Shown: in pieces, positions 1 to 64,000 of the stretch
Position numbering within the stretch: the stretch's first letter is position 1
How the letters are laid out: every line of letters begins with the position of its first letter
Origin: a virus
DNA length: 64,000 bases
Strand: one strand, 5' to 3'
Virus record (IMG/VR): IMGVR_UViG_3300045996_003052
Span: 1 to 64,000 of that record
Program-made: the position numbers and the translations under genes
Notes under the pieces: generated by a model
Database searches by the model: none
Told to the model about the DNA's origin: nothing
The model's input: the letters and a program-made list of their open reading frames with translations, nothing else

Positions 1-1100
1 GGCGATTTGCTGGCGCTCGGACTAACACTCGGAGACTCGCTTGCGGATGGCGACACGGACGCCGACGGCGATTTGCTAGCCGACGGGCTAATACTCGGCG
101 ACTCCGATGCCGACGGACTGACTGACGCTGACGGTGAGACTGATGGCGACTCACTCGCGCTGGGCGATTTCGAAGCGCTCGGTGAAATGCTTGGACTTTC
201 AGATGCCGACGGACTGATCGATGGCGATTCACTCGCGCTCGGTGAAATCGAAGGGGAGAACGCGGTGACTTCAATAATGCGTCGCCGCCAAACCATCCGC
301 GTCGTGCTGCGGAATACGTCGCGATATACATACGGCACGTACCGTACGAACTTTCGAATTGGCGTCGGCGGCATGGTTTCCGACGGACTCACGCTCGCAC
401 TCGGACTAATTGACGCAGACGGACTAATGGACGGGCTTTCACTCGACGACGGCGACGTTGAGGCACTCGGGCTGATCGACGGCGACGCGCTTGCCGACGG
501 AGACACGCTCGGCGATTCGCTCGCGCTGGGACTGACACTAGGGCTGGCGCTCGCGCTCGGCGAGACCGAGGCGCTCGGACTGACCGACGGACTAACGGAG
601 GGTGAATCAGCCGCCACAGCAAAGGGCGTATCGACCCGCGCATTCGTCGCTGCATGATTGAATGTCGGGCCAACCGCACCGCCGTGCGCGTTGTTGTTGG
701 TGACGCGGACTTCCAGGACGAAGCGATCACCCGACGCCCACGTGCCCAGACTCTGACTCGTGAAGGAGAACGTCTTGTCGCCGGTCGTCGCGGTGGATTG
801 TTCGGCTGAGTAGCCGGAGCTGGTCTGGATCGCGCCGCTACTGTCGACACGGTGGAGTTGGACGGCCGCCGTTGTACCGGCGGCGGCAACCGAGACGTTC
901 AAGACGATGCTGTAATCGCCAGTCGCGCCTCCAACACCTGGTATCCCTGCGAGTGTCGCAAAATACCCGCTGCTAGTGCCGCCCGAATTGGTCGCGGTAA
1001 TCGTGTCCGTGCCGCTGGCGGTCTCGTCCAGGATGTGCGTGAACGCCCCGCCGAGAGTGAGATCCGAGGCGCCGTCCTGGAAGCGGAAGGTGCGGGCCAT
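1..1100 (-). CDS. Probable virion protein with beta-rich N-domain and two Ser/Pro (SPSAS-x) repeat tracts; runs off the window end
   Basis: Manually translated from ATG at 1100 (MARTFRFQDGASDLTLGGAF...); open to the window edge. Absent from the ORF track because it has no stop in the window. Repeats at ~373-606 and ~1-260 are separated by an aromatic/basic segment (KFVRYVPYVYRDVFR). Confidence 0.8.
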   Translation of the reverse strand, partial: MARTFRFQDGASDLTLGGAFTHILDETASGTDTITATNSGGTSSGYFATLAGIPGVGGATGDYSIVLNVSVAAAGTTAAVQLHRVDSSGAIQTSSGYSAEQSTATTGDKTFSFTSQSLGTWASGDRFVLEVRVTNNNAHGGAVGPTFNHAATNARVDTPFAVAADSPSVSPSVSPSASVSPSASASPSVSPSASESPSVSPSASASPSISPSASTSPSSSESPSISPSASISPSASVSPSETMPPTPIRKFVRYVPYVYRDVFRSTTRMVWRRRIIEVTAFSPSISPSASESPSISPSASESPSISPSASKSPSASESPSVSPSASVSPSASESPSISPSASKSPSASVSPSASESPSVSPSASKS

Positions 1101-1922: not shown

Positions 1923-3617
1923 CTATCGTGTAAGCATGGCTTTCATGCGCCACCGCCAATATGGTTGATACAGCCATTCCCCCGGTGGTGGGGGACTTGG
2001 TGAAATAGACGCGGACGGTGACACGCTTAAGCTCACGCTCGCACTCGGACTCACCGATGCCGAGGGACTGATTGACGGCGATTCACTCGCGCTTGGACTA
2101 ACGGACGCACTTGGACTTTGTGATGGCGATTCACTAGCGCTTGGAGATTTACTAGCCGACGGCGAAATACTCGGGCTTTCAGACGCACTCGGGCTTTTCG
2201 ACGCCGAAGGGCTGACCGACGGCGACTCTGATGCACTTGGTGAAACCGAGGCCGACGGGGATTTCGACGCCGAGGGCGAAACACTCGGTGACTCACTCGC
2301 GCTGGGACTTTTTGACGCACTCGGGGAGACGCTGGGGCTTTCCGAGGCGCTCGGACTCTTACTGGCGCTCGGCGAAATGCTGGGACTTTCGGACGCGCTT
2401 GGCGATTTCGACGCACTCGGTGATGTCGAGGCCGACGGGCTAACGGATGGACTAACCGACGATGATCCAGCAGCCGCTGGTACGAACTCCACAACCGCCC
2501 AGAGCGCCGAGACTCGCGTATCCGGGTTGCCGTCGGTCGTCTTCGCGCTGATCTGCATCGAGTCTATGGTGGTAGGTGTCCACGCCGCGCCATCCGGATC
2601 GACATAGCGCGTCAGTTTTGATTGCCGACTACCGGCTGTGTCGTCATTGGTGAACCATGAGGTTGATCCCCAAATCACCGCCGAAGCGGATGTAATGGTA
2701 CCGCCTGAGGCTTTCTTGATTTGAGGGAACCAGTTGCTCGCGGCCGAACCTGCCGCGCCGACTTGTGCGTGAACTTCGACGAGCGTGATGGTGTCGCCGG
2801 AACCGATTCCACCGACAGATCCGTTGTCGATGTCCACCCAGACATCGGAAGGATTGACAGGCAGAATCACATAATCGGTAGCATCATTCGGATCGGCTTC
2901 GTCGAGTTGCCCCTCAATCGTGCCGCTGTCGGCCCCGCCGCGTGTCGGTGACCCAGTGTCGGCATCGCCTGCCCCATTGACGCGCAAGTAGCCGACCGAT
3001 CCCACTCCAGGGAGGCCCGTCTGCGTTGACCCACTATTATCGTTTACGGCGAGGTCGTCAAAATACCATTCACCCGTCGTGTTGGCTTCGCTGTTAAGAT
3101 TGCCGCCTAACTGTATGCGCGCTGCCGTAACCGAAAGACTTCGAGTCCCCCCAATGACCTCCACCCCATCCACGAATAGACGCGAACTGTCGGAGATTCC
3201 TAAATCTGTGATGTATTCCAGTTCGATCCGATACTGCTGATTCGTCGCGAGCGCGTCTGCGGCAGCGCCGACTAATCCGTCTTCATCGTAGAGGCGTAGA
3301 ATGCCGTTCTCGTCCAAGGTCACGTACTGTCCTATAGACGCGAACTCGTTTGAAAACTGCAATATACGATTTTCCGCACTGGCGCGCGTGACGACGTATA
3401 AATAGACGCGCGGGAATAATCGGTCGAGACCAGTAGAGGCAAATTGAAACGTGTGCCCCTTGGGCGTGCCGGACGCGAGGCCGCTTATGCCCAGCGATCT
3501 ACTGCCCGTCCGCTTCTGAGTTGTGCTGCTTTGTGTAATGCCACCCTCAAGCGACTGGTGCGCGGGCTCATTCGCCAGCGTCAGGCATTCCCACCCACAG
3601 GTCAGGAGTCGCGCCAT
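1923..3617 (-). CDS. Probable virion/fibre protein with lectin-like beta domains and a ~155-aa C-terminal SPSAS repeat
   Basis: Start re-assigned to ATG 3617 (MARLLTCGWE), because the longer start overlaps the upstream gene. Ends PPPPGEWLYQPYWRWRMKAMLTR. Confidence 0.8.
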   Translation of the reverse strand: MARLLTCGWECLTLANEPAHQSLEGGITQSSTTQKRTGSRSLGISGLASGTPKGHTFQFASTGLDRLFPRVYLYVVTRASAENRILQFSNEFASIGQYVTLDENGILRLYDEDGLVGAAADALATNQQYRIELEYITDLGISDSSRLFVDGVEVIGGTRSLSVTAARIQLGGNLNSEANTTGEWYFDDLAVNDNSGSTQTGLPGVGSVGYLRVNGAGDADTGSPTRGGADSGTIEGQLDEADPNDATDYVILPVNPSDVWVDIDNGSVGGIGSGDTITLVEVHAQVGAAGSAASNWFPQIKKASGGTITSASAVIWGSTSWFTNDDTAGSRQSKLTRYVDPDGAAWTPTTIDSMQISAKTTDGNPDTRVSALWAVVEFVPAAAGSSSVSPSVSPSASTSPSASKSPSASESPSISPSASKSPSASESPSVSPSASKSPSASESPSVSPSASKSPSASVSPSASESPSVSPSASKSPSASESPSISPSASKSPSASESPSQSPSASVSPSASESPSISPSASVSPSASVSLSVSPSASISPSPPPPGEWLYQPYWRWRMKAMLTR

Positions 3618-3624
3618 CGGTGTT

Positions 3625-4080
3625 CTACGGCAGCGGCAGGAACTTCGACAGGAGATCGCCCGGTTGTCCGGCCGCCGCAACTGAGAACGAGTCGCCCGGC
3701 ACGATCTGCCAATAGTGCGTGCAGTTGCGGTTGATGTAGGCTTCTTGGCGCAGCCGCTGTTGCATCTCGGCGCGCGTGGGGTTCTGTCCGGTACCAATCT
3801 CAACCGTCCACCAGAGCGTCGTATCCTGTGAGTATTCGTTCCGCACGACCGCCGGAACATCCGAGTTCAGCATCACGCCGCCCTCGACGAGAATTTGCGG
3901 TGTACCGACGGGCAGTAGCGACTGTTTCAGCCGCCAGCGGTTATAGAGAGGCGGGTTCACGCCGGGTTCGGGGTCGATCCCTTCGATCACGTCGTAGACG
4001 CTGCCCGTCCCGCGAATCGTGCCGATGACCGCGTTACGGGCGTCGGTGTCGTCAATGGTAATCAGGACACAGGCTTTCAT
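3625..4080 (-). CDS. Hypothetical protein
   Basis: AGGAG SD; 151 aa; co-oriented in the operon. Confidence 0.7.
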   Translation of the reverse strand: MKACVLITIDDTDARNAVIGTIRGTGSVYDVIEGIDPEPGVNPPLYNRWRLKQSLLPVGTPQILVEGGVMLNSDVPAVVRNEYSQDTTLWWTVEIGTGQNPTRAEMQQRLRQEAYINRNCTHYWQIVPGDSFSVAAAGQPGDLLSKFLPLP

Positions 4081-4586: not shown

Positions 4587-5606
4587 TCAGCGCCTCACAA
4601 CCGTCATGCTGGCCGTACCAACATTTCCTGAAGTATCCCTTACCTCCACGCGCACCAGGTAGGTGCCAGCAGTGCGGATGGTGGTATACATCGTGTAGCT
4701 GGTGCTCTGATGCGTCAGGTGCGCGGCCTCGACGGCGCCGATGTAGAGGTAGACATGCGCCACGTCTGTGGCGCGGGTCTTCACTGAGAAGTTGAAGTTA
4801 GGCGAGTTGCCAGACCGGCGGTAGGTCAGGTCGTACACGTCTGGAGCCTCGGTGTCAGTCGGCGGTGGCGGTGGCGGAGGTTGTGCCGCGCCTGACTGAG
4901 ACACGTTATACGTGACGGAACTTCCGGCAAAAGCCAGCATCGCCGTGCGCGGCGACGTGGAGGTATTGGGCGCGGCAGTAAAAGAGACGGCCACGCTGCC
5001 CGTGCCGTTGGTCGGGGTGAGTGTCAGCCAGGTCGACGAGTTACCCAAGGACCACTGACAATTCGTAGCCGACGCCTGCACGCCGAAGATACCTTGGCCG
5101 CCGGCGGCCGCAATGGGGTCGGTCGAAACAGGAATATTGAGTGTGAAGGTGCACGGCGGAGGCAGGGGCGGCGGTGTGCCGCCATCGCCATTAACTACAC
5201 GCGACGTTATCGGGCTCCACAGCGTTTCACTGACAACAGTGCCATCAGCCAGCGTCCGGGACGCCTGGATGGCGACTTGCGCTCCGAGCTGATGAGAGCC
5301 GGCCGTGAGCACGATGGGACCGGCGACGAACGGCACGATCCCAGTTACCGGGTCGTAGGTATAGGTCTCGCGATTCGCCGCACCCTCCCAGACCGCCACC
5401 CCGTCCACAGTCACCAGCACCCGCTGGATGGACTGGAGAGTGCCATCTGCCAGCCTGATCGGTTGACACACAATGACGCGCACGGGAACACCTACAGGCG
5501 CAACTAGCGGACTGGTATCTGGACAGGTGTTAAGGGTTTGAGCGGAGATATTACCTGCTAGGGTTAATAAAAGCAGGAGATACCAGAAAACTATTTTTCG
5601 AATCAC
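4587..5606 (-). CDS. Secreted protein with signal peptide, Ig-like domains and a BACON-like domain
   Basis: N-terminal MIRKIVFWYLLLLLTLAGNISA signal peptide; poly-Pro linkers; BACON-like CxW...WLTLTP...G.G.V.FT..PNT...RTA.L....YNVSQ. Confidence 0.7.
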   Translation of the reverse strand: MIRKIVFWYLLLLLTLAGNISAQTLNTCPDTSPLVAPVGVPVRVIVCQPIRLADGTLQSIQRVLVTVDGVAVWEGAANRETYTYDPVTGIVPFVAGPIVLTAGSHQLGAQVAIQASRTLADGTVVSETLWSPITSRVVNGDGGTPPPLPPPCTFTLNIPVSTDPIAAAGGQGIFGVQASATNCQWSLGNSSTWLTLTPTNGTGSVAVSFTAAPNTSTSPRTAMLAFAGSSVTYNVSQSGAAQPPPPPPPTDTEAPDVYDLTYRRSGNSPNFNFSVKTRATDVAHVYLYIGAVEAAHLTHQSTSYTMYTTIRTAGTYLVRVEVRDTSGNVGTASMTVVRR

Positions 5607-7252
5607 TTTACGTTCTCCTGAAGAAACTGCTCAAAGCGTCCCTTCGTGACGCCCCAACCCGGCACCTCGTCAACTAAAGCCCAACCCTCGCAAGCTTTAG
5701 GGTTCCGAAATTCGGACGGATCCCAACGCGACTCGGTCAGGTTCTGGGCGTGGCGAAGATCAACGTTGGGGAACGGACTCATCCATCGCTGCGCGGAATA
5801 GCTATCCACGCCTCGCGGTGGTCGATGGCACCCGGGTTCAAAACCCATCGCCCGAGTAAAACCTTCCCGCTCCACCCGCTCGATACGCTTTCGATAGTGC
5901 TCGATGAGCAATTTACGGTAAGCGCATAGCCCCGATGTCTGCTTCGTGTAATAGAAGACCGCTTGCCCTGTTTTTGTGTCAACTTTGTAGGTATTTTCAT
6001 TGTAGTAAAAGACGTCAGCCTGTGGCGGCGTAAACTCAAAGTGCGACGAGTGGTACAACACGTCGTGCTCACACAGGAAAACAATGTCGGCGTCGGTGGC
6101 CTCAAGGCCAGCGAGAATTTGGCGAAACATCGTCATAGTCCCGCGTTCAAGGGGGACTACGACGTTCCTGCCAAAATCCAGTGGTTTTAACGAAACCGAC
6201 ACCAAGTCGTGTCCGTTAAGGCTGTGCTGCAGCCGCTGCCGCACCGGCGCGGCCAGCTTCTCGTCAAGCCGGCTATCCGTATAATAGATCGCGGCTTTCT
6301 TTAGCGGTTTTCCGGCCACGTCCTCCCACCCTGGTACCGGCGCAAACTTCTTAATAAGCCACTCGAACGGCAATTTCGCGCCCGGCCACTTGTTTTCTAC
6401 CCACAACTGCCGGGAGTATTTACGCGCTTTCTCGACGTCCTTGGCAGGATTCTGGTAAGGAAAGCCAAAGTCACCGCCTTGGGTACGGAACATATGGGCG
6501 TACCAGGTCTTTTTGTTGACCACCTGCCGGCCACCGGAAAGCCAAGACTTGCAGGAAATCTCAACGCCCATCTGGCCCCAAGAACCATGGCGTTCGTCCA
6601 ATCCCCCAAGCTCCCAGTACCGTTTTCTGTGCATGAACCAACAGGCTCCAAGATTGCACATCACGTCAACGATGTCGCCTTGGGCCTCAGGGCGCGACTT
6701 GTAGCCGCCCCAGTACTGAAAATGAAGATCGCGGTCAAATCGCCACGCCTCAGTCATCTTATGTAGGCGCGGCTTCCAAATCATCTCGCGACGCATCCCA
6801 ATTCGCTTGCACAGTGGACACTTTTCAGGAGTCGGCCCCTGATAGATTCGGCCCTGGCAGCCTTTTCCATCGCCCTCGTAGCTGTGGCACACCCAGTCGA
6901 AAGCGTGCAAGTTATACATCCGTGGAATGACTGTCCAGTCACGCTCGCAGTCTGCCATTAACTTAACGTCGAAGCCCTCGTCAACCGAGCAGTGCGCGTC
7001 CAATTTCATGATAAACTTGGACTGCGACAACCACGCTGCCTGATTCGTCGCGCCGCGTTGACCGCGAGGGTTGGCGTTATAAATGACCTGAACCCTTGGG
7101 TCCTGTGGCAATTCAAACCCCGCCACTGCCCACTGCCCGTCAAACACAACGATGACCTCTGTATCTCCCCTAGAATTGTCAAGAACGTCCTTGACAGTTC
7201 GCGCCAGGAACATCTCGTTGCGCGCCGGAATAAGTACAGATAAATCTGCCAC
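5603..7252 (-). CDS. Two-domain GT-A glycosyltransferase; N-domain resembles polypeptide GalNAc-transferase (GT2/GT27-like)
   Basis: LSVLIPARNE start, DAH metal motif, WGQMGVEISCKSWLSGG...AHMFR; second domain with FLCEHDVLY (DxD-like). Confidence 0.85.
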   Translation of the reverse strand: MADLSVLIPARNEMFLARTVKDVLDNSRGDTEVIVVFDGQWAVAGFELPQDPRVQVIYNANPRGQRGATNQAAWLSQSKFIMKLDAHCSVDEGFDVKLMADCERDWTVIPRMYNLHAFDWVCHSYEGDGKGCQGRIYQGPTPEKCPLCKRIGMRREMIWKPRLHKMTEAWRFDRDLHFQYWGGYKSRPEAQGDIVDVMCNLGACWFMHRKRYWELGGLDERHGSWGQMGVEISCKSWLSGGRQVVNKKTWYAHMFRTQGGDFGFPYQNPAKDVEKARKYSRQLWVENKWPGAKLPFEWLIKKFAPVPGWEDVAGKPLKKAAIYYTDSRLDEKLAAPVRQRLQHSLNGHDLVSVSLKPLDFGRNVVVPLERGTMTMFRQILAGLEATDADIVFLCEHDVLYHSSHFEFTPPQADVFYYNENTYKVDTKTGQAVFYYTKQTSGLCAYRKLLIEHYRKRIERVEREGFTRAMGFEPGCHRPPRGVDSYSAQRWMSPFPNVDLRHAQNLTESRWDPSEFRNPKACEGWALVDEVPGWGVTKGRFEQFLQENVK

Positions 7253-7259
7253 GACCTAG

Positions 7260-7433
7260 CTACGCTCCCCCCGCCTGGCGAATTACCTCTTCTCGAAGTT
7301 TTTCACGATAATCTGGCAACAGTTCCTTACAGCTCCCGCAGAGCGGGATGCTGTACTGCCCAATCGGCGGCGTGTGCGTTTTGCCAGCGATACAGTCGTC
7401 GGTTTCCTGCTTGCAAATGAAGCACTTAGCCAT
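7260..7433 (-). CDS. Small zinc-finger protein
   Basis: MAKCFIC...CGSC; start re-assigned to ATG 7433. Confidence 0.5.
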   Translation of the reverse strand: MAKCFICKQETDDCIAGKTHTPPIGQYSIPLCGSCKELLPDYREKLREEVIRQAGGA

Positions 7434-7773
7434 TGACCACCTGCAGAGGAATATATTTTCGGCTACTGTCGCATCGGTCTGAAAACACCATAATGGCGCG
7501 AGACTCGCAGCGATATTCACGGCACAGTTGAGGGCGACGCTCATAGATTCCGCACAGCCCCTCTTCCGTTAACTGATTACACCGGCGCCGAATCTTTACC
7601 TGCCCGTTCGACAGCACAGTAGACATTCGCCGTAACTCCTCAAGGGTCACGCCCCACAGGCCGTGAACTTCAAGGAAGTATTGCCCGTCAATAGTCAGGT
7701 AGAGCTCGGGGAACAAGAGGTGCAGCGGCTCGATGTCTAGGTCTTCGCAGCACTTGGAACAATACTTTGACAC
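7426..7773 (-). CDS. YkgJ-like CxxCC cysteine-cluster (putative Fe-S/Zn) protein
   Basis: CSKCC...RCNQL...CGIYERRPQLCREY signature. Confidence 0.75.
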   Translation of the reverse strand: MSKYCSKCCEDLDIEPLHLLFPELYLTIDGQYFLEVHGLWGVTLEELRRMSTVLSNGQVKIRRRCNQLTEEGLCGIYERRPQLCREYRCESRAIMVFSDRCDSSRKYIPLQVVNG

Positions 7774-7994
7774 CTCGCCTCCCTCCTGGCAGCCTTATCA
7801 GCTCGGCGTGCCGCTTTCCCGCGTACTTTCTTCACAACACGACGGATGACCTGCGTATCGTGGTCGCGTTGGTATATAGTCTGATCACTAGTCTTTAAGT
7901 AGCCTCGGTCCGTCTCGTGCGGTTCATATATGTGGTGAGACCGGCCTTTGCTAGAGAATGTTCGCTCAATAACTTGTCCAGTTTTACTGTCCAA
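7737..7994 (-). CDS. Small basic hypothetical protein
   Basis: 85-aa ORF in the operon; C-terminal KVRGKAARRADK. Confidence 0.5.
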   Translation of the reverse strand: MDSKTGQVIERTFSSKGRSHHIYEPHETDRGYLKTSDQTIYQRDHDTQVIRRVVKKVRGKAARRADKAARREARCQSIVPSAAKT

Positions 7995-7997
7995 GGG

Positions 7998-8648
7998 CTA
8001 CTCCTTCACCCAAAACCAGGAACGCGGACGGTCGCGTTTCTCGCCTTCCTTTACGTCCTTGCGCCCGACGACGAACCACGGGCTAATGAAGAACGCGTCT
8101 GTGTAGGCGTTAACCGCCTGCACTACGTGGCACTGGTACGGCCCAGGACCGCGCCGACAGTAATCGTGGCCAGCCACGATACCGCCCTTCCGCACCTTCT
8201 TCTCCCAGGCGCAGATGTCGTCCATGACCCACGGCAGCCCGTGGTTCGCATCGATATAGACGAAGTCCAATGAAGTGTCCCTGAAATCTCGGGACGCCTC
8301 AACGCTAAACTTACGGATAAACTTTACCCGGCCTTCAAACGGCGCAAGGCGATCTTTCGCCGTAGCCAGGAGGCCGTCGACCTTGGACTGCGTGACGTGG
8401 TCACGGTAGCCCTGGTACGCCTTCCAAGCATCGACGCAAAAAAGTCGCAGGTTAGGATTACGCTTCAGCAGCACTTCAGAGTACTTGCCGGTCTCTACCC
8501 CAAGCTCCACACCCGTCTCATACCCAAGTTCAAAAAATAACGACGCGAGGTCGTCGCGGTCGACGTCAGGGAGCTCGACAGGCTGGCGAGCGTGTTTCGG
8601 GTCCGCTAACTCGTATTTCTTTGTAACATGCCACAACGTGTCAGGCAA
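7998..8648 (-). CDS. Class I SAM-dependent methyltransferase (Methyltransf_24-like, probable sugar O-methyltransferase)
   Basis: GVELGVETG, VDAW, LDFVYIDANH, GGIVAGHDY motifs. Confidence 0.85.
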   Translation of the reverse strand: MPDTLWHVTKKYELADPKHARQPVELPDVDRDDLASLFFELGYETGVELGVETGKYSEVLLKRNPNLRLFCVDAWKAYQGYRDHVTQSKVDGLLATAKDRLAPFEGRVKFIRKFSVEASRDFRDTSLDFVYIDANHGLPWVMDDICAWEKKVRKGGIVAGHDYCRRGPGPYQCHVVQAVNAYTDAFFISPWFVVGRKDVKEGEKRDRPRSWFWVKE

Positions 8649-9531
8649 GCGCTCTCTCCCAGAAACCTTTAATGATTTTCGGCCAGCTAAAGCGCTCGTG
8701 GGCTACCTGAATTTCTTCAGGCCGCACGCGACGGTAGGGCTGTTGAAACAGCGCCACCAGTTGGTCGATGACTTGTTGCCGCGGCAACTCCTCGATGTAC
8801 TCCGCAAGGTCCCCGTACCACTGCTGGTAATGTGGCCGATTGTACAGGACCGGGCGGGCACCGCAGAACAGCCCCTCGACGGCAGGCAGCTCGAAACCTT
8901 CTGTCCGGCGTAGGGGGCAGACGTACCGCACCTGAGACATAACCGACGCCAATTGGTCGTCGCTTATGTCTTGTTGGCAATCGATGTCCATCCCACGGTG
9001 AATAGGGCCACCCAAGTGAAACGCTTTTTTACCTACCAATCGAGTGGCCCAGGCCACCTCCCTAACCCCCTCCGTGAGCCACGACTGCCCGTGGGTCATC
9101 GAGAGGTAGGGGCGACTCCCGTTCAAACTCAACCTATCAAAGAACACACTACCGTGTGCTCCGAGGGGCGCGTGGTAGAACTCCCACGTTCGTTCACGGT
9201 TTTCACCGTCCTCAGCTGCCAAAGCATCAAGGTTGTAGTAGCTCCAAACCAACCTTGAATTTTTCCAAAGTGACCGCCAGTCCTGCGTGCGTGGTTTCTG
9301 CGTACTGCGTAAGCAGTACTGGATAACCGCGTATTTTTTCCCCGCAACCATCAGATCTCGCGCCTCGTTGTGGATCTGCTCACACCTACCGATGACGTGG
9401 AGCACTACGAGGTCCGCCTCGCCGACACGGTCAACGACGTGGACCTCAGGCGGGGCGTACTGCTTTAGGGCAGCTTCCACACGCCTGAGCGAGGGCGACT
9501 TGACCGGCGGTGGTTCGAGATAAACTTTCAA
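8641..9531 (-). CDS. GT-B glycosyltransferase (GT4-like)
   Basis: EGFELPAVE (EX7E) motif and terminal FSW. Confidence 0.8.
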   Translation of the reverse strand: MKVYLEPPPVKSPSLRRVEAALKQYAPPEVHVVDRVGEADLVVLHVIGRCEQIHNEARDLMVAGKKYAVIQYCLRSTQKPRTQDWRSLWKNSRLVWSYYNLDALAAEDGENRERTWEFYHAPLGAHGSVFFDRLSLNGSRPYLSMTHGQSWLTEGVREVAWATRLVGKKAFHLGGPIHRGMDIDCQQDISDDQLASVMSQVRYVCPLRRTEGFELPAVEGLFCGARPVLYNRPHYQQWYGDLAEYIEELPRQQVIDQLVALFQQPYRRVRPEEIQVAHERFSWPKIIKGFWERALA

Positions 9532-9665
9532 ACGTCTCCCTCATCGCGTCGATATAGGACGCGAGCTCCACGGGCATTGGCCCACGGTAGACCAGGTCCT
9601 GGTCCACAAAGACCAAGACCTGGTCGTCGGTCTCCCAAACCACGTAGAAATCGAACACCGTAGCT

Positions 9666-9863
9666 TTAGGTGACGGCCGGCTCGTCCGTGGCGTCGGTGT
9701 CGTCTTCAGGTCGAGTCCAACCATCCGCCTTGTTACGCTCGCGCCATTCTTGGTTGGTGCCCTGCTTCGTCTCCGTCTCCCCAGTCGCTGGATTGACGCG
9801 TGTCCAAGTGCTAAGCTTCTGCTGACCACGCGCCGAGTCGGTACCACGATCTTCTGGCTTCAT
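9666..9863 (-). CDS. Small hypothetical protein
   Basis: Strong AAGGAGG SD upstream of the ATG. Confidence 0.65.
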   Translation of the reverse strand: MKPEDRGTDSARGQQKLSTWTRVNPATGETETKQGTNQEWRERNKADGWTRPEDDTDATDEPAVT

Positions 9864-9882
9864 CCTATCCTCCTTTTTGTTT

Positions 9883-10037
9883 ACGCCGACGAGAATTTAG
9901 CCCCGACGCCGTCTTCCGGCTCTAGGAGCGTGTCTATTCCTACCCAACAGAGACGGGGACATCCGCCCCGCATACCTTGGCACATCCCGCATTCTGCGGG
10001 AGGCGACAAGCGTTGCCTTCATCGTGTATTTCGGCAT
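9883..10037 (-). ncRNA. Candidate structured RNA (multi-hairpin domain)
   Basis: Outer stem 9883-9889/10031-10037 encloses five hairpins; lies between ORFs. Confidence 0.35.
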
Positions 10038-10040
10038 CGA

Positions 10041-10253
10041 TTATTTCCTCCTCAATAGAACGTCATTGAGCTGATCCCGCAGCCTGGCCGCCTCTGGCCG
10101 GGTCATCACCGGCCGCGCGAGAATCTCCAACTTTTCTGAAGGCGTCCCCTCTGAGAAATGCATAAAGATCTCCAGCTTCACGTTGCCGCCCTCCTCGCAC
10201 ACCAGGAGACGACGCCGCCCAAGGCACCTAACCATGTCCTTAAGGTGCGGCAC
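10041..10253 (-). CDS. Small hypothetical protein
   Basis: Overlaps the stop of the upstream glycosyltransferase; SD present. Confidence 0.55.
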   Translation of the reverse strand: MPHLKDMVRCLGRRRLLVCEEGGNVKLEIFMHFSEGTPSEKLEILARPVMTRPEAARLRDQLNDVLLRRK

Positions 10254-11217
10254 CGACGACCTCTTTCTCCCTTTTCGCCGCCTTCAGCGCCTCGGGGCCA
10301 CCAGGAAACCGCGCCTCGTGCCGTAGTTGTTCCCAGTTGGTGGGCCAATGGGGCACGGGCCAGAAGCGCTCAATGAGCCACTTGATGTCGTGGACCCGTT
10401 GGGTCCATTCGTCGAACATCCAGAAGTCAACGGCGGCCTGTGCGCCCCGGGCCATTTCGCCTTTAGAGATAAAGTACCCGCGGCCGTACTCCTTGCCCTT
10501 GTGCAGGTGCGCGTACCACGTCTTCTTATTCACCAGGACGCGTCCGCCGCCCAACCAGGCCTTGAGCCCGATCTCTTGAAATTCTTGCACGAAATTTCCA
10601 TATCGGTCCGTATCTAACGGACCGATATGCCGATTGAAATATTTTCGTTGCATGAACCAACAAGAGCCCTGGGACGACATCTCCTCATCGATAAGGATGT
10701 CTTGACGTTCATGAGCCCGTTTGGTCCAAACGGTCCCATGAAGGCCGACGCCGGGGCGGTCGGCCTCATACGGCCATGACAGGTAGTGGTAGTCGACGGG
10801 TTTCTTGCCAGTTTCCTTGAACTTCCAATTTTCTGGGTCGAGGGAGTACCTACGGGGTACTACCACCGTCTGCCTATCGCATTCTTCCTGGAGGGCTACG
10901 TCGTAGCCCTCGGCAAGCATACAGTGGGCGTCGAGCTTCATTAGGAAATCGCCAGTCGCGACGCGCGCGCACGCGTTGATAACCGTGCGCATCCCCTGCG
11001 GCGCGCCGAAGTGGACGGCGTGAACCCGCGGATCCCGCCAATCTACCTCGTGGGTAGTCCCGTCCCCGTGGGTCACAGGGACAGGCCAATACCCATCGAG
11101 GCCTACCAGAACCTCCACGTCGCCCCGGGCCTTAGCCAGGACGTCGTTGACGGTCCGGGCCATGAACTGCTCGTTGCGCGACGGGATGATGACGGAGACT
11201 TTTAGCGTCTTGGGCAT
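10240..11217 (-). CDS. GT-A glycosyltransferase, ppGalNAc-T-like; paralog of the 5603..7252 N-domain
   Basis: VSVIIPSRNE, KLDAHC, GSCWFM, EIGLKAWLGGGRVLVNKKTWYAHLHK. Confidence 0.85.
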   Translation of the reverse strand: MPKTLKVSVIIPSRNEQFMARTVNDVLAKARGDVEVLVGLDGYWPVPVTHGDGTTHEVDWRDPRVHAVHFGAPQGMRTVINACARVATGDFLMKLDAHCMLAEGYDVALQEECDRQTVVVPRRYSLDPENWKFKETGKKPVDYHYLSWPYEADRPGVGLHGTVWTKRAHERQDILIDEEMSSQGSCWFMQRKYFNRHIGPLDTDRYGNFVQEFQEIGLKAWLGGGRVLVNKKTWYAHLHKGKEYGRGYFISKGEMARGAQAAVDFWMFDEWTQRVHDIKWLIERFWPVPHWPTNWEQLRHEARFPGGPEALKAAKREKEVVGAAP

Positions 11218-11434: not shown

Positions 11435-11716
11435 CTAGCTCGGTGACACCGAGGCTGACGGGCTCTTAGAAGCTGAAGGTGACTTTGAGGCCGACGGGCT
11501 CTTGCTCAGTGATGGTGACGCGCTCAACGAAGGTGACGGGCTGTGCGACGGTGAAACCGACCGGCTCAAGCTGGCTGATGGGCTCTTTGAAGCCGAGGCT
11601 GATGGGCTCTCTGACGGCGACGCGGAGACGCCGAGGCGGTTCTCTACCTCCGCCATCTTTTCCTCTAGCAGGTCGACGCGGTCGCTAAGTAGCTTGAAGC
11701 GAAATTGCCAAGACAT
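11435..11716 (-). CDS. Small coiled-coil protein with C-terminal SPSAS repeat (first gene of the operon)
   Basis: AGGAG SD; ~28-aa heptad helix followed by ~63 aa of Ser-X repeats ending SASVSPS. Confidence 0.75.
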   Translation of the reverse strand: MSWQFRFKLLSDRVDLLEEKMAEVENRLGVSASPSESPSASASKSPSASLSRSVSPSHSPSPSLSASPSLSKSPSASKSPSASKSPSASVSPS

Positions 11717-38529: not shown

Positions 38530-38844
38530 ATGGCTGATCAAGGGTTTGAGGTCGTACAGCGGCCACGTGGCGGAGGAAACGTACCAGACGCGCTGATGAA
38601 GGCACTAATCGAGACGGTAAATACCGACAAGGCGGTACGTGTCAAGCTAGACGGACACGCGGCGTTCACGAACTGGCAGGCGACGATTCGCGCGCGATTG
38701 CGCACAGATCACCAGCTGCGGTTGCGGACGAAGTTCAACAAGGCGAACAACGTGGTCACAGCGTGGGTTGAGAAGTTCGACCCCCGGGAAACGGGAGAGG
38801 GCATGACAGATGAGGACCTTGGCGTATCCGAAGATAAGTCCTAA
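38530..38844 (+). CDS. Hypothetical protein
   Basis: AGGAGG SD. Confidence 0.7.
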   Translation: MADQGFEVVQRPRGGGNVPDALMKALIETVNTDKAVRVKLDGHAAFTNWQATIRARLRTDHQLRLRTKFNKANNVVTAWVEKFDPRETGEGMTDEDLGVSEDKS

Positions 38845-52272: not shown

Positions 52273-55200
52273 TCATGTCGCAACCCTTACCATGTCCCAG
52301 GCCGTCAAAATTATCTGCTCCTCACCAAGGTTTGGGTTGATGAGGTGCCGCAGAATGAGAACTTGTGACTCCGACGCAGGGCGCAAACTGTTCCAATGGT
52401 CTACAAGTATCCGATCGCCAAGTTCATCATGCAGCGCCGTTAAATCTTGAGACGGCATTGGTATAGAGTAATGAATAGGCGCTTTTCGGTAACAGCTAAT
52501 AAAGTTTGACATCGCGGCTAGCGCTGTTGCAGGGTCCCTCGTACAATACAGCTGTAACGTCTCCGTCGGTTCATAAACTCTTCGTTGACCTTGAGTTCCA
52601 TGAGCTTGCTGCGACGGAATGTCCTCAACAGGCCCTTGGTCTAATACCCTAAACTGCCGTAGGTCTGTGTCCCAATCAAAGTCGTAATATAGCCGATTTA
52701 CGCGTTGTGAAGGAACCGGTGTTCCTTGCGGTAACGATTCTAGGTTATAAGGGAACTTATAGAGTCGCCCGGTGGTTAACGAAGCAGTCGTATACGGTAG
52801 TACAGGGAATGGTTGACCGAAATGATTTACCCCCATCAATGCGCCAAACGTTGAAAAGAATCGGCGAATAAATTCGCGAAGCGTCATAGGCTCGTCAATG
52901 CACCAGGCGCCTAAAAAGCCAATATCGTTACCTATTAAAGTTTTAGAAATTTGTTGCGCGCGTTCGTACATTGTAGTTTGGAGCACTGGTCGACTATCTA
53001 CGTATGTTTCAAGGGTGTGCATGTCCCCGCGCCGATAACCCTTGCCCCTATCCTTAAAAACGAACTCGTTAAAAAACAGTTGGAGCTGGTAGAAAGCTTG
53101 CGTAACTACCAAATTGTTCGTGCCGCGATAACCGCAAACGTTAAACGCAATCGTGACGGTTTCATCAATGTGGTGCTGCAGCCTAGGTCCCCGGATTAAA
53201 GCTGCGGTAAACCGAAACACCTCCCCATCCGAGTTTGCCTTCTCAATCCATGGGTTGGGAAACGGCCACTGCGGACTAGTCGGTAAAATGTACTCTACGC
53301 CTTCAAGGGACGGGTCCATTGGCGCCCGCGTCGGTTGTGCCTCAGGTGCCAGGTTTGAGGCATATGGGGTATCCTTAATCGTAACTTCACCAATGGACAC
53401 CACGATCATCCCCCAATAATCATCAACGGTACCAGAAACGGCCGTTGACTCAATCGGCGGGCTATAGCTCTTCGCGTGGTCTACGTCTGTAGTAGTCGGC
53501 GTTGGCGCTGGTTTCGCGCCATCGTTATAGTACGCGCGGTCGGGTTGCGTAGTACCTTGTCCGTATCCGTAATACGATTCATCTAGCCAGCTGGTAGGTG
53601 GACTTGTGTATCGCCCCCACCAGCGAACTTTGTTTTCGTCATTGGGTCCGGCGTCAAAATCGCACCGCATCTTTACGTAGTTACTCAAACCCAACGCAGC
53701 GTCTGTTGGGGCGTTCCGCACGACTAAAACGTCAGAAACGCGCGACTCGCCGTAAGGCGTAATGACGGACGCAAAAAAATACCTTGTTTGATCGCCTTCA
53801 GGGCCTACAAGTTCGTATTGAAGGTTACTGGGTGGTGGAACCATGGGCGGTGGTGTTGGGTCAATCTCACCGCCACCACCGATGCGATACATCCCAGTAT
53901 ATTTCCCTGGAATCAAACCCTTATCTGCTCGCAAACCATCAGCTGACTTAGACCCTACGTCGTTATGTTCGCCTAAAACAATAGGGTAATATAGCACTGA
54001 ATCTTCAGGTAAATTTTCGTGCTCGTCACCAATCGGGATCGCCAAGTCCCGCTCCAAGTTAAACGCGGAGAACTCAGAACCTATAATGTCGATGACCTCG
54101 AACGACACGATGCGTTCGTCGAGCAGCTGCGGGTGACCCGCTAAAATTCCCCTGAAGACCGTCCACGGTTCTAGGCCAGCCTCCAAGCCCTCGTCCGACA
54201 GCAGTAGGATGTCGCCCTCCCAGCCATCCCAGTACGACGTCTCCTCATCAGTCAGGAGTCCTCTGATAAGGCCGTCTTCGTCTGATACTACCACGGTTAT
54301 CCTGGTGACCTCGAACGCGCCGTTCGGCGTGGAGAGCGCCCGATCAATTTGCGAAATACTAATCAGGCGATCTTCCTTCCAGGAACCCGGCAGTGACTTG
54401 GGCTGGTACGACCACTCGAAAATGTCGGTACCAGCCGACATAGGGTTACGTTCAGCCCGTAATCTAAACCAGAAATTCGGACGTTTGGGGGTGGGCGGCG
54501 CTGATGGCGACGGTGAAGTGCTAGCTGATGGTGACACCGACGCAGATGGTGTTGGTGACGGCGACGGGGACCTTGACGGCGAAGCGCTAGCTGAGGGTGA
54601 GATCGACTGCGATGGCGAGACCGAGGGTGAAAGGCTAGGCGATAACGAAGCGGAAGGCGACCTCGAGGGCGATGGTGACTCGGAGGCAGACGGCGACTGT
54701 GATGCTGAAGGTGAAGGAGTCGGCGATGGCGAAGCCGAGGGCGACAGGGAGGCTGACTGGGAGATGCTCGCGCTTGGCGATTGTGACGGCGACTGTGACG
54801 CTGAGGGCGACTTTGAGGCGCTTGGTGACTCAGACGCCGATGGCGATTCAGAGGCCGACGGAGAAAGAGACGGAGACGGCGTTGGCGATGGCGACGCAGA
54901 GGGCGATAAGGACGCCGAGGGTGAAGTAGACTTTGACGCAGACGGCGACTTAGACGCCGAGGGCGACTTCGACGCGCTAGGAGACTTTGACGCCGACGTT
55001 GAAGGAGACTTTGACGCCGACGGTGACTTAGACGCGCTAGGAGAAATCGAGGGGGAAGAACTAGCTGACGGCGAAATTGATGCCGATGGTGAGCTACCAG
55101 AAATACCAGCTGCTACGTAGCCAACAAAGGCCGCGACACCATCAGCGGTATCCGCTACTATAGTAAATCCGCCGCTATCAAACGATTGAAGGTCGTGTTC

Positions 55201-56304
55201 TGCGACAATTGCCGTAGCATCGTTTTGGTCAAGAAAGACAACTACCTGGTCGTGCGATACGGCCGTTCCAGCCGTTACGTCGGCGGTGGCGTCGGCGTCA
55301 GAAGTAGCGTGGGCACCGCGTTGTGTCGTAGAACTAGCGGCCCCCATGCTCCATTCGTCAGTGGATGACGGCGTATCGCTAGCAGATTCCGCTCGGTGTG
55401 CGGAAACACAAAGCAATGCGTTAGGTTGAAACCCAAACCCCGAGGGTGCCGTCGTACCTCCGCCAGTAGTTGGAGTTGTAAAGTTACCAACTTTCCAATT
55501 TCCGCCTTTAATGGCAAGGTAAAGATACGGTCTATTTGTAAGCGTGCGTTCAGCGTAGTTTAGACGGAATCCGTTAACTAGCATCGACGTAATCGATGCC
55601 CGTACGTTTATTACGGAAACCGTTGAATTATGCATCGCGATCACGCCGCCGGAGCGCATATACGATGCTGTATTCGCCGCCGCTACGTTGCCACCTTGGC
55701 TACCGCTCGCACAAACCCATTGGTTAAGTGCCCCGTCACAGGCACCTATCATCAACAGACCTGTACCTGTGGGGGCTGGAAGCGTGGCACTTGCAACGTT
55801 ACCAGCTCCGAGTAGCAGCACTAAGTCGGGTTGAAAACCTGGGGCGGTAACGTCAACGTCACCAGTTGCCGCAGGTTCGAGGGTAATTCCGACAGCTAAG
55901 TTAGTGATGGCACCGGCTAAGGCGAGGTAGTGGATTCGCTGGTCCCTAGGAAACGCGTCGATAACTTCTAAGGTAAAGCCACCGGCATCAAACGATTTTA
56001 GGCGCGCGGAACCATCGATGGTAGTCGTGAAACTAACAGAAACAACGCACCCTTCATCGGTCTGCGCGGCGTTTGAATCGGTAGCGGTATTGCCGTCATC
56101 AGAGTTTGAACAAATCGCGTAATTAGACCCAACCCCGATAGTCCAGCCGATATGTCGAAATATATCCTCACCGCCGACGGCGTCAGACGTTTCGGTACGG
56201 CCGGAAGACCAAAAAATTACGCAAGTCGGCTGAAATCCTAGACCCGCGACGACAATGTCGCTTGTACCAGTGCCTGTATTGAACGACCCAACGCGGCTAC
56301 TCAT
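52273..56304 (-). CDS. Large tail tip/hub protein with beta-rich N-domain and a ~200-aa SPSAS repeat linker
   Basis: 1343 aa; located after the tape measure and Dit; repeat at ~54500-55100. Confidence 0.8.
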   Translation of the reverse strand: MSSRVGSFNTGTGTSDIVVAGLGFQPTCVIFWSSGRTETSDAVGGEDIFRHIGWTIGVGSNYAICSNSDDGNTATDSNAAQTDEGCVVSVSFTTTIDGSARLKSFDAGGFTLEVIDAFPRDQRIHYLALAGAITNLAVGITLEPAATGDVDVTAPGFQPDLVLLLGAGNVASATLPAPTGTGLLMIGACDGALNQWVCASGSQGGNVAAANTASYMRSGGVIAMHNSTVSVINVRASITSMLVNGFRLNYAERTLTNRPYLYLAIKGGNWKVGNFTTPTTGGGTTAPSGFGFQPNALLCVSAHRAESASDTPSSTDEWSMGAASSTTQRGAHATSDADATADVTAGTAVSHDQVVVFLDQNDATAIVAEHDLQSFDSGGFTIVADTADGVAAFVGYVAAGISGSSPSASISPSASSSPSISPSASKSPSASKSPSTSASKSPSASKSPSASKSPSASKSTSPSASLSPSASPSPTPSPSLSPSASESPSASESPSASKSPSASQSPSQSPSASISQSASLSPSASPSPTPSPSASQSPSASESPSPSRSPSASLSPSLSPSVSPSQSISPSASASPSRSPSPSPTPSASVSPSASTSPSPSAPPTPKRPNFWFRLRAERNPMSAGTDIFEWSYQPKSLPGSWKEDRLISISQIDRALSTPNGAFEVTRITVVVSDEDGLIRGLLTDEETSYWDGWEGDILLLSDEGLEAGLEPWTVFRGILAGHPQLLDERIVSFEVIDIIGSEFSAFNLERDLAIPIGDEHENLPEDSVLYYPIVLGEHNDVGSKSADGLRADKGLIPGKYTGMYRIGGGGEIDPTPPPMVPPPSNLQYELVGPEGDQTRYFFASVITPYGESRVSDVLVVRNAPTDAALGLSNYVKMRCDFDAGPNDENKVRWWGRYTSPPTSWLDESYYGYGQGTTQPDRAYYNDGAKPAPTPTTTDVDHAKSYSPPIESTAVSGTVDDYWGMIVVSIGEVTIKDTPYASNLAPEAQPTRAPMDPSLEGVEYILPTSPQWPFPNPWIEKANSDGEVFRFTAALIRGPRLQHHIDETVTIAFNVCGYRGTNNLVVTQAFYQLQLFFNEFVFKDRGKGYRRGDMHTLETYVDSRPVLQTTMYERAQQISKTLIGNDIGFLGAWCIDEPMTLREFIRRFFSTFGALMGVNHFGQPFPVLPYTTASLTTGRLYKFPYNLESLPQGTPVPSQRVNRLYYDFDWDTDLRQFRVLDQGPVEDIPSQQAHGTQGQRRVYEPTETLQLYCTRDPATALAAMSNFISCYRKAPIHYSIPMPSQDLTALHDELGDRILVDHWNSLRPASESQVLILRHLINPNLGEEQIILTAWDMVRVAT

Positions 56305-57167
56305 GATATCCAGGACTCGGGATCAATGAGGTCGGGAGCCATTGGTACTGTGCCCAGACCGTCACAAGTAGGGTACCAAGTAGGGTCGGTAGCGATTGGC
56401 AAATTTCCAACAACTCCGGTAGTATCATCGTCGCGTTTCGCTGCGTTCGTACCGTCGCTACAGCACTCCGTAGAACTAACTACCGTAGATTCAGGCAAGC
56501 TTGTAGTTGGAGCCGCTGAGGGTGACGCCGAGGACGACGGTGACTTTGACGCTGACGGTGACTTTGACGCTGACGGTGATTTTGACGCCGAAGGGGACCG
56601 CGTTGGGGAAGGGGACGCCGACGGCGAACCTGATGCGGATGGCGACTTTGACGGCGATCCGCCAATCGACGCATACTCCCACTGCACGCGAACAGTAAAC
56701 CCCTGAATTTGAAATGTTCGGTGGCTGCTGGAAAACAAGACGTTCCCGTTTATTACCTTTACGACGGTACCCCAACGGTAAGAAAAAACTTCTGCCCTAG
56801 TAAACGGTACTCCCGACCATGGGTTATAGTGCTGATACGGCGGCACCCATAGATAATTTAGGCGTCCGTAATCCTGACAAGAAATTTCATTATCGCCGTA
56901 ACCCTCTCCCGCAACATCGACGCTTTCTGCGTCAACAGACACCGTCGGTGCGAGGCAAAAGTTAGAAAAATTTACAGGAATGTACCCGGGAACAAAGGAG
57001 CCTGCGCAGAGCGTCATGCCAAGACCCGTAATAATGGCGTCGACAGGAACGTCTCCGTAGTCAGGCAACGTATAGGTGACGTAGTCCCAGGTCTTGATCT
57101 CTTCCGGCGCCATTGTTTGCGAAGGAACTTCTACGCCAACGGCAACGGGGATGTCGGTAAAAGGCAT
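56301..57167 (-). CDS. Tail protein with an internal SPSAS repeat
   Basis: Coupled to both neighbours; repeat at ~56510-56660. Confidence 0.75.
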   Translation of the reverse strand: MPFTDIPVAVGVEVPSQTMAPEEIKTWDYVTYTLPDYGDVPVDAIITGLGMTLCAGSFVPGYIPVNFSNFCLAPTVSVDAESVDVAGEGYGDNEISCQDYGRLNYLWVPPYQHYNPWSGVPFTRAEVFSYRWGTVVKVINGNVLFSSSHRTFQIQGFTVRVQWEYASIGGSPSKSPSASGSPSASPSPTRSPSASKSPSASKSPSASKSPSSSASPSAAPTTSLPESTVVSSTECCSDGTNAAKRDDDTTGVVGNLPIATDPTWYPTCDGLGTVPMAPDLIDPESWIS

Positions 57168-63667: not shown

Positions 63668-64000
63668 TTACGCCGACGGCGACACTGAAGCCGAAGGTGA
63701 CTGGGACCCAGATGGTGATTGTGTTGCCGAGGATGAAGCTGACGGCGACGGCGATGACACGCCAAACGTAGCCGCCGCCTTCTCACGACTTAGCTGAAAG
63801 ATCTGATCGCCTCGGGTACGCGTCGTATCCGGCAGGCACTGGAACATGACGGCGTAGGTGCTGGGCGCGGTACGACTATAGGTCAGCGGCATCGCGTTAA
63901 TGGAGATGCACTTGTACGCCACAAGAATCTCGTAGGCGCCGGCGATGTCGCGTCGAGCCGACGATAAGAAAATCGTCGTATAGAGAGGCGCGATGATGCT
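63668..64000 (-). CDS. Major tail tube protein, C-terminal part, ending in a Ser/Pro extension
   Basis: Frame is open to the window edge; position upstream of the chaperone; ends SSPSPSASSSATQSPSGSQSPSASVSPSA. Confidence 0.7.
   Translation of the reverse strand, partial: SIIAPLYTTIFLSSARRDIAGAYEILVAYKCISINAMPLTYSRTAPSTYAVMFQCLPDTTRTRGDQIFQLSREKAAATFGVSSPSPSASSSATQSPSGSQSPSASVSPSA

Follow-up and report, generated by a model that had tools for sequence, protein, structure and literature searches.

A window of 64,000 nucleotides, comprising bases 1-64000 of the 75,742-bp IMG/VR virus record IMGVR_UViG_3300045996_003052 from an uncultivated phage, encodes two glycosyltransferases whose catalytic domains match those of the eukaryotic polypeptide GalNAc-transferases (ppGalNAc-Ts, glycosyltransferase family GT27). 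The short enzyme (P0002, 325 residues, 10240..11217, minus strand) consists of the catalytic domain only. The long enzyme (P0001, 549 residues, 5603-7252, minus strand) joins a GT27-like N-terminal domain (residues 1-310, 6323..7252, minus strand) to a second, C-terminal domain. Both genes belong to a glycosylation operon at the head of the late minus-strand gene block, and six late-module proteins of the same phage hold long tracts with Ser at every second position. As the best explanation of the whole, we consider it likely that the GT27-like enzymes transfer sugar to the tract serines of these late proteins. The phage thus probably glycosylates the proteins of its own particle. On strong genomic evidence, and with good confidence, we infer that the acceptor is the serine of a polypeptide.

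An earlier note on this DNA, made from the sequence alone, had pointed out that both proteins carry DAHC in place of DxD, that the strings GACWFM...WGQMGVEISCKSWLSGG...AHMFR occur in the long enzyme and GSCWFM...EIGLKAWLGGG...AHLHK in the short one, and that these are signature motifs of ppGalNAc-Ts. All of the strings are present, and conservation and alignment bear out how they were read. In P0002 the DxH motif is D96-A-H98-C99 (D96/H98 at 10924-10932), followed by G184-SCWFM, E215-IGLKAWLGGG-225 and A236-HLHK-240, with the C-terminal His, H237, at 10507-10509. The corresponding elements of P0001 are D85-A-H87-C88 (D85/H87 at 6992-7000), G202-ACWFMHRKRYWELGGLDERHGSWGQMGVEISCKSWLSGG-241 and A252-HMFR-256, with H253 at 6494-6496. 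The Asp and His of DxH and the C-terminal His are the only invariant columns besides Met1 among 76 short-form homologues; in 50 long-form homologues D85, H87 and H253 are also invariant, there among many other such columns, and F255 and R256 are likewise found in 50 of 50. HMMER aligned the DxH of the enzymes to 'ldshc' of GalNAc-T2 and 'ldahc' of GalNAc-T1, the C-terminal His to the His of 'vghvfr', and the motif stretches residue for residue to 'dvwggenleisfrvwqcgg...vghvfrk' of GalNAc-T2. The three invariant residues correspond to the three Mn ligands of ppGalNAc-transferases. According to Taujale et al., DxD is replaced by DxH in GT27 and GT60, to which the change is stated to be confined, and the C-terminal His is a metal ligand in GT27 (PMC7185993).

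The E-I-S/G...W-L-x-G-G portion of the eukaryotic motif WGGENxE-I-S-F-R-x-W-x-C-G-G is kept in both enzymes. The difference in the WGGE-equivalent loop (WGQM vs FVQE) to which the same note drew attention is real, and it is specific to the two subfamilies: the equivalents of WGGENxE are W-G-Q-M-G-x-E in the long form and F-x-Q-E-x-x-E in the short form. P0001 has W225-G-Q-M-G-V-E231, with the acceptor-side segment A-H-M-F-R-T-Q-G-G-D-F-G-F-P-Y, and P0002 has F209-V-Q-E212-F-Q-E215. Among the long homologues the loop is nearly fixed (W 50/50, G 50/50, Q 48/50, M 42/50, G 50/50, then E 50/50), and the short ones have F in 49 of 76 and Glu in 70 and 65 of 76 at the two Glu positions of WGGENxE. 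P0001 and P0002 are paralogues with 48% and 39% identity over the two halves of the catalytic domain, and a joint tree separates the 50 long-form N-domains cleanly from the 76 short forms (support 0.992). Long and short forms are two old paralogue clades, each with its own sugar-side loop, a division consistent with the suggestion in the earlier note that the two may use different donors or act in sequential steps. The Asn of WGGEN, N335 of GalNAc-T2, aligns with F213 of the short enzyme and G229 of the long one, with no acidic residue at this position, which is A, P or F across the short family and G in 50 of 50 long homologues. In inverting GT-A enzymes this is the position of the catalytic base, and the missing carboxylate would fit retaining chemistry.

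Comparisons at the level of profiles and structures separate GT27 from the generic GT2 families. In Pfam, only PF00535 (generic GT2) lies above cut-off, at 55.5 and 43.5 bits (E 8e-15 and 4e-11) and in P0001 over residues 5-111 only. PHROGs holds no family for either enzyme, and NCBIfam returned for them only GT2 equivalogs far below cut-off. Single-sequence searches of the Protein Data Bank (PDB) returned almost exclusively ppGalNAc-Ts, with one weak GT2 chain at E 0.35. When a profile of the 76 short-form homologues was searched against the PDB, the 14 best distinct sequences were ppGalNAc-Ts, matched over positions 3-254 at E 5e-20 to 3e-14, vs approximately positions 3-100 only and E 3e-11 or weaker for GT2 chains (K4CP, 3bcv, 6p61, GalT1, SpsA). 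The long-form profile gave the same pattern. AlphaFold models reached a predicted local distance difference test score (pLDDT) of 94.5 for P0002 and 91.7 for P0001. All Foldseek hits listed for P0002, to rank 49, are GT27 structures (best E 4e-15). In VIA-align, an exhaustive alignment against 48,161 representative chains, P0002 scored Z 26.4 with mouse GalNAc-T1 (root-mean-square deviation 2.8 A over 269 residues) and 25.6 with Toxoplasma GalNAc-T3, vs 18.4 for the best GT2 enzyme (K4CP); the N-domain of P0001 scored 25.8 and 24.1 with GT27 vs 18.9 for the next chain. Neither models nor profiles place the enzymes with the GT2 enzymes of polysaccharide or lipopolysaccharide (LPS) synthesis.

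The two proteins lack the accessory parts of the eukaryotic enzymes. No ricin-type lectin domain is present, P0002 ending after the catalytic domain and the fold of the P0001 C-domain not being a beta-trefoil. There is also no type II anchor, stem or hydrophobic segment: the first strand lies at residues 4-7, and the highest 19-residue hydropathy values are 0.97 and 0.78. Both enzymes are predicted to be soluble, cytoplasmic GT-A glycosyltransferases. Where the earlier note had proposed protein-acceptor O-glycosyltransferases without a ricin lectin domain, the absence of the lectin holds, and the protein acceptor stays a deduction, drawn from the two-way genomic link with the (Ser-x)n tracts described below. 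Because the enzymes lack the lectin domain and the membrane anchor, give no match to PF02709 (Glyco_transf_7C) and keep WGGENxE only in part, we file them as a GT27-like sister family and not as GT27 members. PF02709 is carried by one 59%-identical homologue (P0068) and by one neighbouring ESM Atlas cluster (52% of members). The family is mostly viral, known from metagenomes only and large: clustering at 90% identity gives more than 3,300 and more than 5,400 clusters, and at 50% identity there are 838 representatives. It is the closest known prokaryote-side relative of eukaryotic GT27. Some relatives of 1,050-1,350 residues (P0128-P0130, P0135, P0142) contain three matched stretches, corresponding to two or three fused GT27-like domains.

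The putative acceptors are six late-module proteins, all encoded on the minus strand, which together hold 1,219 residues of tracts such as SPSASVSPS. The alternate positions are occupied by Pro (38%), Ala (24%) and Val (13%). The first gene of the operon (11435..11716) encodes a candidate minimal acceptor of 93 residues, whose N-terminus is helical and whose (Ser-x)n tail comprises 63 residues. A 645-residue late protein (phrog_14065, 1923..3860) has its tract at residues 466-623 (1992-2465), which is matched by the NCBIfam MSCRAMM and 'serine-rich protein' models. In a 991-residue protein 734 of the 991 residues (74%) are (Ser-x)n tract; the 5' part of its open reading frame (ORF) lies at 1..1100 and continues across the junction of the record into genome positions 75615-73740. 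The tail module contributes a 1,343-residue protein (52273..56304; tracts at residues 405-602, 54499-55092), a 288-residue protein (56301..57167; tracts at residues 171-218, 56514-56657) and a 231-residue Ig-domain protein. The gene for the last (63668-64363, of which the 3' part, 63668..64000, lies in the window; phrog_2175, E 7e-7) adjoins a neck gene, and its (Ser-x)n tail is C-terminal (residues 204-231, 63671-63754). We considered whether the tracts could be artefacts of DNA repeats and rejected this on the basis of mixed Ser codons, weak Tandem Repeats Finder signals and long same-strand ORFs. Since AGY and TCN codons are mixed among the tract serines and DNA tandem repeats are weak, the tracts are maintained at the protein level.

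The enzymes and the tracts are coupled across genomes, whichever of the two is used to find the other. We compared 40 loci chosen by the short enzyme (599 kb; 30 from IMG/VR and 10 contigs of metagenome-assembled genomes (MAGs)), 80 loci chosen by a degenerate DNA pattern that encodes the tract (732 kb) and 80 control loci chosen by an arbitrary 14-mer (648 kb), counting a tract when it had at least 8 (Ser-x) units. Tracts were found in 26 of the 40 enzyme-picked loci (10,064 tract residues; enzyme in 40/40), and the enzyme in 30 of the 80 tract-picked loci (tract in 71/80). The controls yielded a tract in 2/80 (48 tract residues) and the enzyme in 0/80. All 40 enzyme-picked loci match both enzyme queries, with the full-length long form in 17. 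The nearest tract lies on the enzyme strand in 26 of 26 enzyme-picked loci, at a median of 0.9 kb, and in 30 of 30 tract-picked loci with an enzyme, at a median of 0.7 kb. Among whole viral records, 23 of 47 picked by tract carry the enzyme, as do 5 of 8 when only those of at least 90% completeness are counted; for random records the corresponding figures are 0 of 49 and 0 of 16. With kinship ignored, Fisher p is 1.9e-9 for 23/47 vs 0/49 and 4e-14 for 26/40 vs 2/80. The carriers are otherwise unrelated, as any non-cassette gene of this phage has homologues in at most 2 of 120 loci.

We propose the following course of events. Late in infection, the enzymes would bind Mn2+ and a nucleotide sugar and move the sugar to serine hydroxyls of the SPSASxSPSVSx tracts in the six late-module proteins, probably with retention (alpha linkage). 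One enzyme would start the chain, which the other enzyme, the C-terminal transferase-like domain of the long enzyme and a Methyltransf_24 enzyme of the operon would extend and O-methylate. Tail and other virion proteins would thereby gain 'bottle-brush' segments that are stiff, hydrophilic and resistant to proteases. As to which enzyme initiates, we lean slightly towards the N-domain of the long one, since its acceptor-side segment resembles GHVFRKQHPYTFP of GalNAc-T2 most closely and is conserved without exception (H-M-F-R-T-Q-G-G-x-F-G-F-P-Y).

Several points weigh against this proposal. Identity to GT27 is only 16-22%, the Pfam match is limited to the generic GT2 N-terminal half, and neither PF02709 nor PF11397 (GT60) matches P0001 or P0002 at E values up to 1. 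Of the WGGENxE residues, the long enzyme has Met for the first Glu, and most short enzymes have Phe for the Trp. A peptide acceptor does not follow from a GT27-like fold, and donor, acceptor and anomeric outcome are putative throughout the family. The co-occurrence counts carry no phylogenetic correction, 14 of the 40 cassette loci have no tract within the DNA covered, and some complete tract-bearing genomes, e.g. G001 and G042, lack the enzyme. A complete 45-kb phage, a giant-virus bin and a provirus (G001, G039 and G042; loci L047, L088 and L092) have SPSAS-type tracts without the enzyme family, and tracts can therefore occur with other partners or none.

The departure of the sugar-side loop from WGGENxE in both enzymes also leaves room for the view that they only extend a glycan whose first Ser-linked sugar comes from another enzyme, either the GT4-like ORF of the operon (8641-9531) or a host protein, as with GtfA/B in serine-rich repeat (SRR) adhesins. 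The weak GT-B signals in that ORF are consistent with it, as is the presence of a GT-A enzyme of the SRR protein pathway (5hea GalT1) among the weaker PDB matches. However, the GT4-like gene occurs in just 6 of the 40 cassette loci, where the conserved core is the short enzyme, the long enzyme and the methyltransferase, and it is polypeptide transferases of the initiating kind, rather than elongating GT2 enzymes, that match over the whole domain. A single shared host initiator is unlikely because the hosts are diverse. We consider extension alone unlikely, and slightly less probable still is an acceptor in the host envelope (polysaccharide, teichoic acid, LPS or lipid carrier), as for many phage GT2 enzymes, with the tracts as unrelated linkers. 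The Pfam and NCBIfam labels are of GT2 type only, homologues are annotated by their sources as 'cell wall biosynthesis', and some MAG loci contain sugar-nucleotide and envelope genes, all of which would suit an envelope acceptor. Against it, the enzymes have no membrane segment, the scan of cassette genes revealed no family of flippase or GtrA/GtrC type, and the best GT2 structures score 7-8 Z units under GT27. Tract coupling on the same strand within approximately 1 kb across unrelated phages is hard to explain otherwise.

Phages such as the T-even group glycosylate hypermodified DNA on hydroxymethyl-pyrimidine bases, and the presence in this phage of a gene with the thymidylate-synthase fold (PF00303 at 44147-44773, in ORF 44069-44968, E 2.6e-18) would allow the same role for the enzymes described here. 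The Pfam thymidylate-synthase model matches in that ORF and not in ORF 38810-39658, which encodes 282 residues and for which 36 carrier records yielded no homologue. PF00303 matches the genome of this phage and 10 of 14 control genomes but is missing from 10 other carrier genomes of at least 90% completeness, and the cassette heads the late structural strand, away from replication genes. With the search confined to these two genes and not extended to TET/JBP-type hydroxylases, DNA glycosylation is unlikely as a conserved role, and as the function of these enzymes we regard it as very improbable. Transfer of sugar to the tract serines of late proteins remains the reading that we prefer.

We compared the enzymes with a GT27 set of GalNAc-T1, T2, T4, T7, T10, T12, PGANT9 and Toxoplasma GalNAc-T3. 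Shared features are the GT-A catalytic domain (Z 24-26), the site formed by DxH and the C-terminal His, xxE-I-S/G-xx-W-xx-G-G, H-x-F-R, a base position without an acid, and likely acceptors that are long Ser/Pro-rich, mucin-like tracts. Unlike GT27, the phage enzymes have no ricin-type lectin, type II anchor or stem and would be cytoplasmic instead of Golgi-resident; WGGE is F-x-Q-E in the short form or W-G-Q-M in the long form, and the long enzyme adds a Cys4 insert and a transferase-like domain. The phage tracts have Ser only, at alternating positions, unlike Thr-rich proline-threonine-serine repeats. Among the protist polypeptide alpha-GlcNAc-transferases (GT60, PF11397) some enzymes are likewise soluble and cytoplasmic; one of these, Gnt1, acts on Skp1. 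GT60 also has no lectin domain. It is stated to be the only family to share DxH with GT27 (PMC7185993). Phage clusters carrying PF11397 are among the nearest ESM Atlas neighbours of P0002, which we treat as a lead only, and no GT60 structures appeared among the structural matches. The bacterial GT2 enzymes (SpsA, the chondroitin polymerase K4CP, TarP/TarS, WrtF) share PF00535 on the nucleotide-binding half and the same GT-A fold (Z 15-19); they differ in that the phage enzymes have no profile match past approximately residue 100, DxH instead of DxD and no acid at the base position, and GT2 scores 7-8 Z units below GT27.

Glycosylation of Ser-rich proteins and of virions has precedents. In Gram-positive bacteria the SRR adhesins Fap1, GspB and PsrP are paired with GtfA/B, and the serine-aspartate (SD)-repeat proteins Clf and Sdr with SdgA/B. 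These systems initiate with GT-B (GT4) enzymes and export their products via accessory Sec. As in the SRR and SD-repeat systems, the phage has alternating Ser-x tracts hundreds of residues long and cytoplasmic glycosyltransferases encoded beside the substrate. Unlike in those systems, conservation centres on GT27-like GT-A enzymes, the putative substrates belong to a phage and there is one weak GT4-like ORF only. For the mycobacteriophages Che8, Corndog and Myrna, virion glycosylation is reported (Freeman et al. 2023, as described in PMC12619734 and PMC12363180), with glycans at the C-termini of capsid and tail tube subunits. These phages also encode glycosyltransferases in the late region, and our phage has a C-terminal (Ser-x)n tail on an Ig-domain protein of its tail module; the putative acceptors differ in being tracts, spread over six proteins, whose lengths range from tens to hundreds of residues. 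A tblastn search of both enzymes against 50,697 GenBank phage records gave no match at E 1e-5 (P0001) or 1e-2 (P0002), and megablast also returned nothing. The enzymes thus have no detectable homology to the Che8/Corndog-type glycosyltransferases.

The operon runs in the order 93-residue tract protein, short enzyme, possible GT4-like ORF, Methyltransf_24 protein, CxxCxxCC protein, long enzyme and BACON/Ig protein, all on the minus strand. The C-terminal domain of the long enzyme (residues 312-549, 5603..6319) has a fold like that of nucleotide-diphospho-sugar transferases: in the whole-protein model residues 315-546 match IspD-type chains at Z 11.4-12.2. It contains a conserved E395-H396-D397 and no GxGxR loop. 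Domains of this type occur as free-standing viral proteins of approximately 220 residues in the Atlas and also inside bacterial GT2+Methyltransf_24 fusions, and PDB sequences gave no match. Judging from the model, this domain is probably a further glycosyltransferase. The long enzyme also carries a Cys4 zinc-ribbon-like insert at approximately residues 118-150 (6803..6901), in which C122, C132, C145 and C148 are invariant or nearly so; it is found neither in the short enzyme nor in GT27. The insert has weak eL37-like matches (E 0.35-0.9), a lead only, and one homologue is labelled 'ribosomal protein L37E' by its source.

The third conserved member of the cassette, with the two enzymes, is a methyltransferase dependent on S-adenosylmethionine (7998..8648; Pfam Methyltransf_24, E 1.2e-14). 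Homologues were found in 28 of the 40 loci with the cassette and in 17 of the 80 picked by tract, compared with 0 of 80 random loci, and the protein probably O-methylates the glycan. The possible GT-B (GT4-like) glycosyltransferase (8641..9531) is accessory and its signals are weak: phrog_2170 at E 1e-3 and an MshA-type chain at E 0.022 over residues 186-244. Between this ORF and a 70-residue ORF, approximately 500 bases (9446-10040) have no convincing gene call; ORF 9446-9847 begins with an implausible Arg-rich N-terminus, and its true start is probably further in. A CxxCxxCC (YkgJ-type) metal-binding protein (7426..7773; PF03692, E 4.5e-7) occurs in 1 of the 40 loci. The last gene of the operon encodes a BACON/Ig protein with a signal-peptide-like hydrophobic N-terminus (4587..5606; PF13004, E 1.8e-9), and its start overlaps the stop of the long enzyme. 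Since none of the 40 cassette loci contains a homologue of it, this protein probably lies outside the conserved system. Promoter and terminator scans performed no better than shuffles and were not used as evidence.

The minus-strand late block runs from approximately 11716 down to 1 and then from 75615 down to approximately 48852, with the terminase, portal, protease, capsid, neck and tail genes further along from the operon. The record has a terminal repeat of 127 bp that is spanned by an ORF. This 'direct terminal repeat' is taken to be an assembler overlap, and we rejected the ends of the record as physical genome ends. Because of the repeat and the ORF that reads across the junction, the record is best read as circular or circularly permuted. 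Elsewhere in the window, a 426-residue ORF (41248-42528) matches an HNH endonuclease (phrog_5046) as well as methyltransferases.

The ten MAG loci (L034-L043) are binned as Peribacteria, Planctomycetota, Nanoarchaeota, Gammaproteobacteria, Daviesbacteria, Woesebacteria, Saccharibacteria, Levybacteria and Phycisphaerae. Some look phage-derived (Mu F, capsid, connector, tube) and others cellular (TatC, MerR, sugar-nucleotide enzymes). A DegT aminotransferase, an epimerase/dehydratase and a C-methyltransferase in MAG loci hint at amino or deoxy sugar donors in some carriers.

DxH GT-A enzymes initiate mucin-type O-glycosylation in a process regarded as eukaryotic and Golgi-based. Neither GT27-like phage enzymes nor the glycosylation of Ser-x tracts in phages is described in the literature searched; 'GT27' is merely listed in an automated CAZy table of one virome paper (PMC9602057). 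The present data show lectin-less, soluble relatives of GT27 that adjoin proteins consisting of up to 74% Ser-x repeats, a pairing that recurs across unrelated uncultivated phages. Only tentatively do we suggest that this phage lineage, which also includes contigs binned to candidate phyla and to a nanoarchaeon, may be the prokaryote-side sister or source of GT27/GT60 and may form, with the tracts, a self-contained cytoplasmic 'mucin-type' O-glycosylation system. If so, bacterial viruses would bear mucin-like brushes, and mucin-type chemistry would have arisen not only in eukaryotes. Should the proposed chemistry hold, such brushes on many environmental phages could affect adsorption, stability, aggregation and recognition by immune systems or grazers. 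The enzymes would also represent a minimal route to mucin-like glycoproteins in the bacterial cytoplasm and an outgroup for the origin of GT27 and GT60, and the whole system, one small operon with a natural substrate of 93 residues, would be directly testable.

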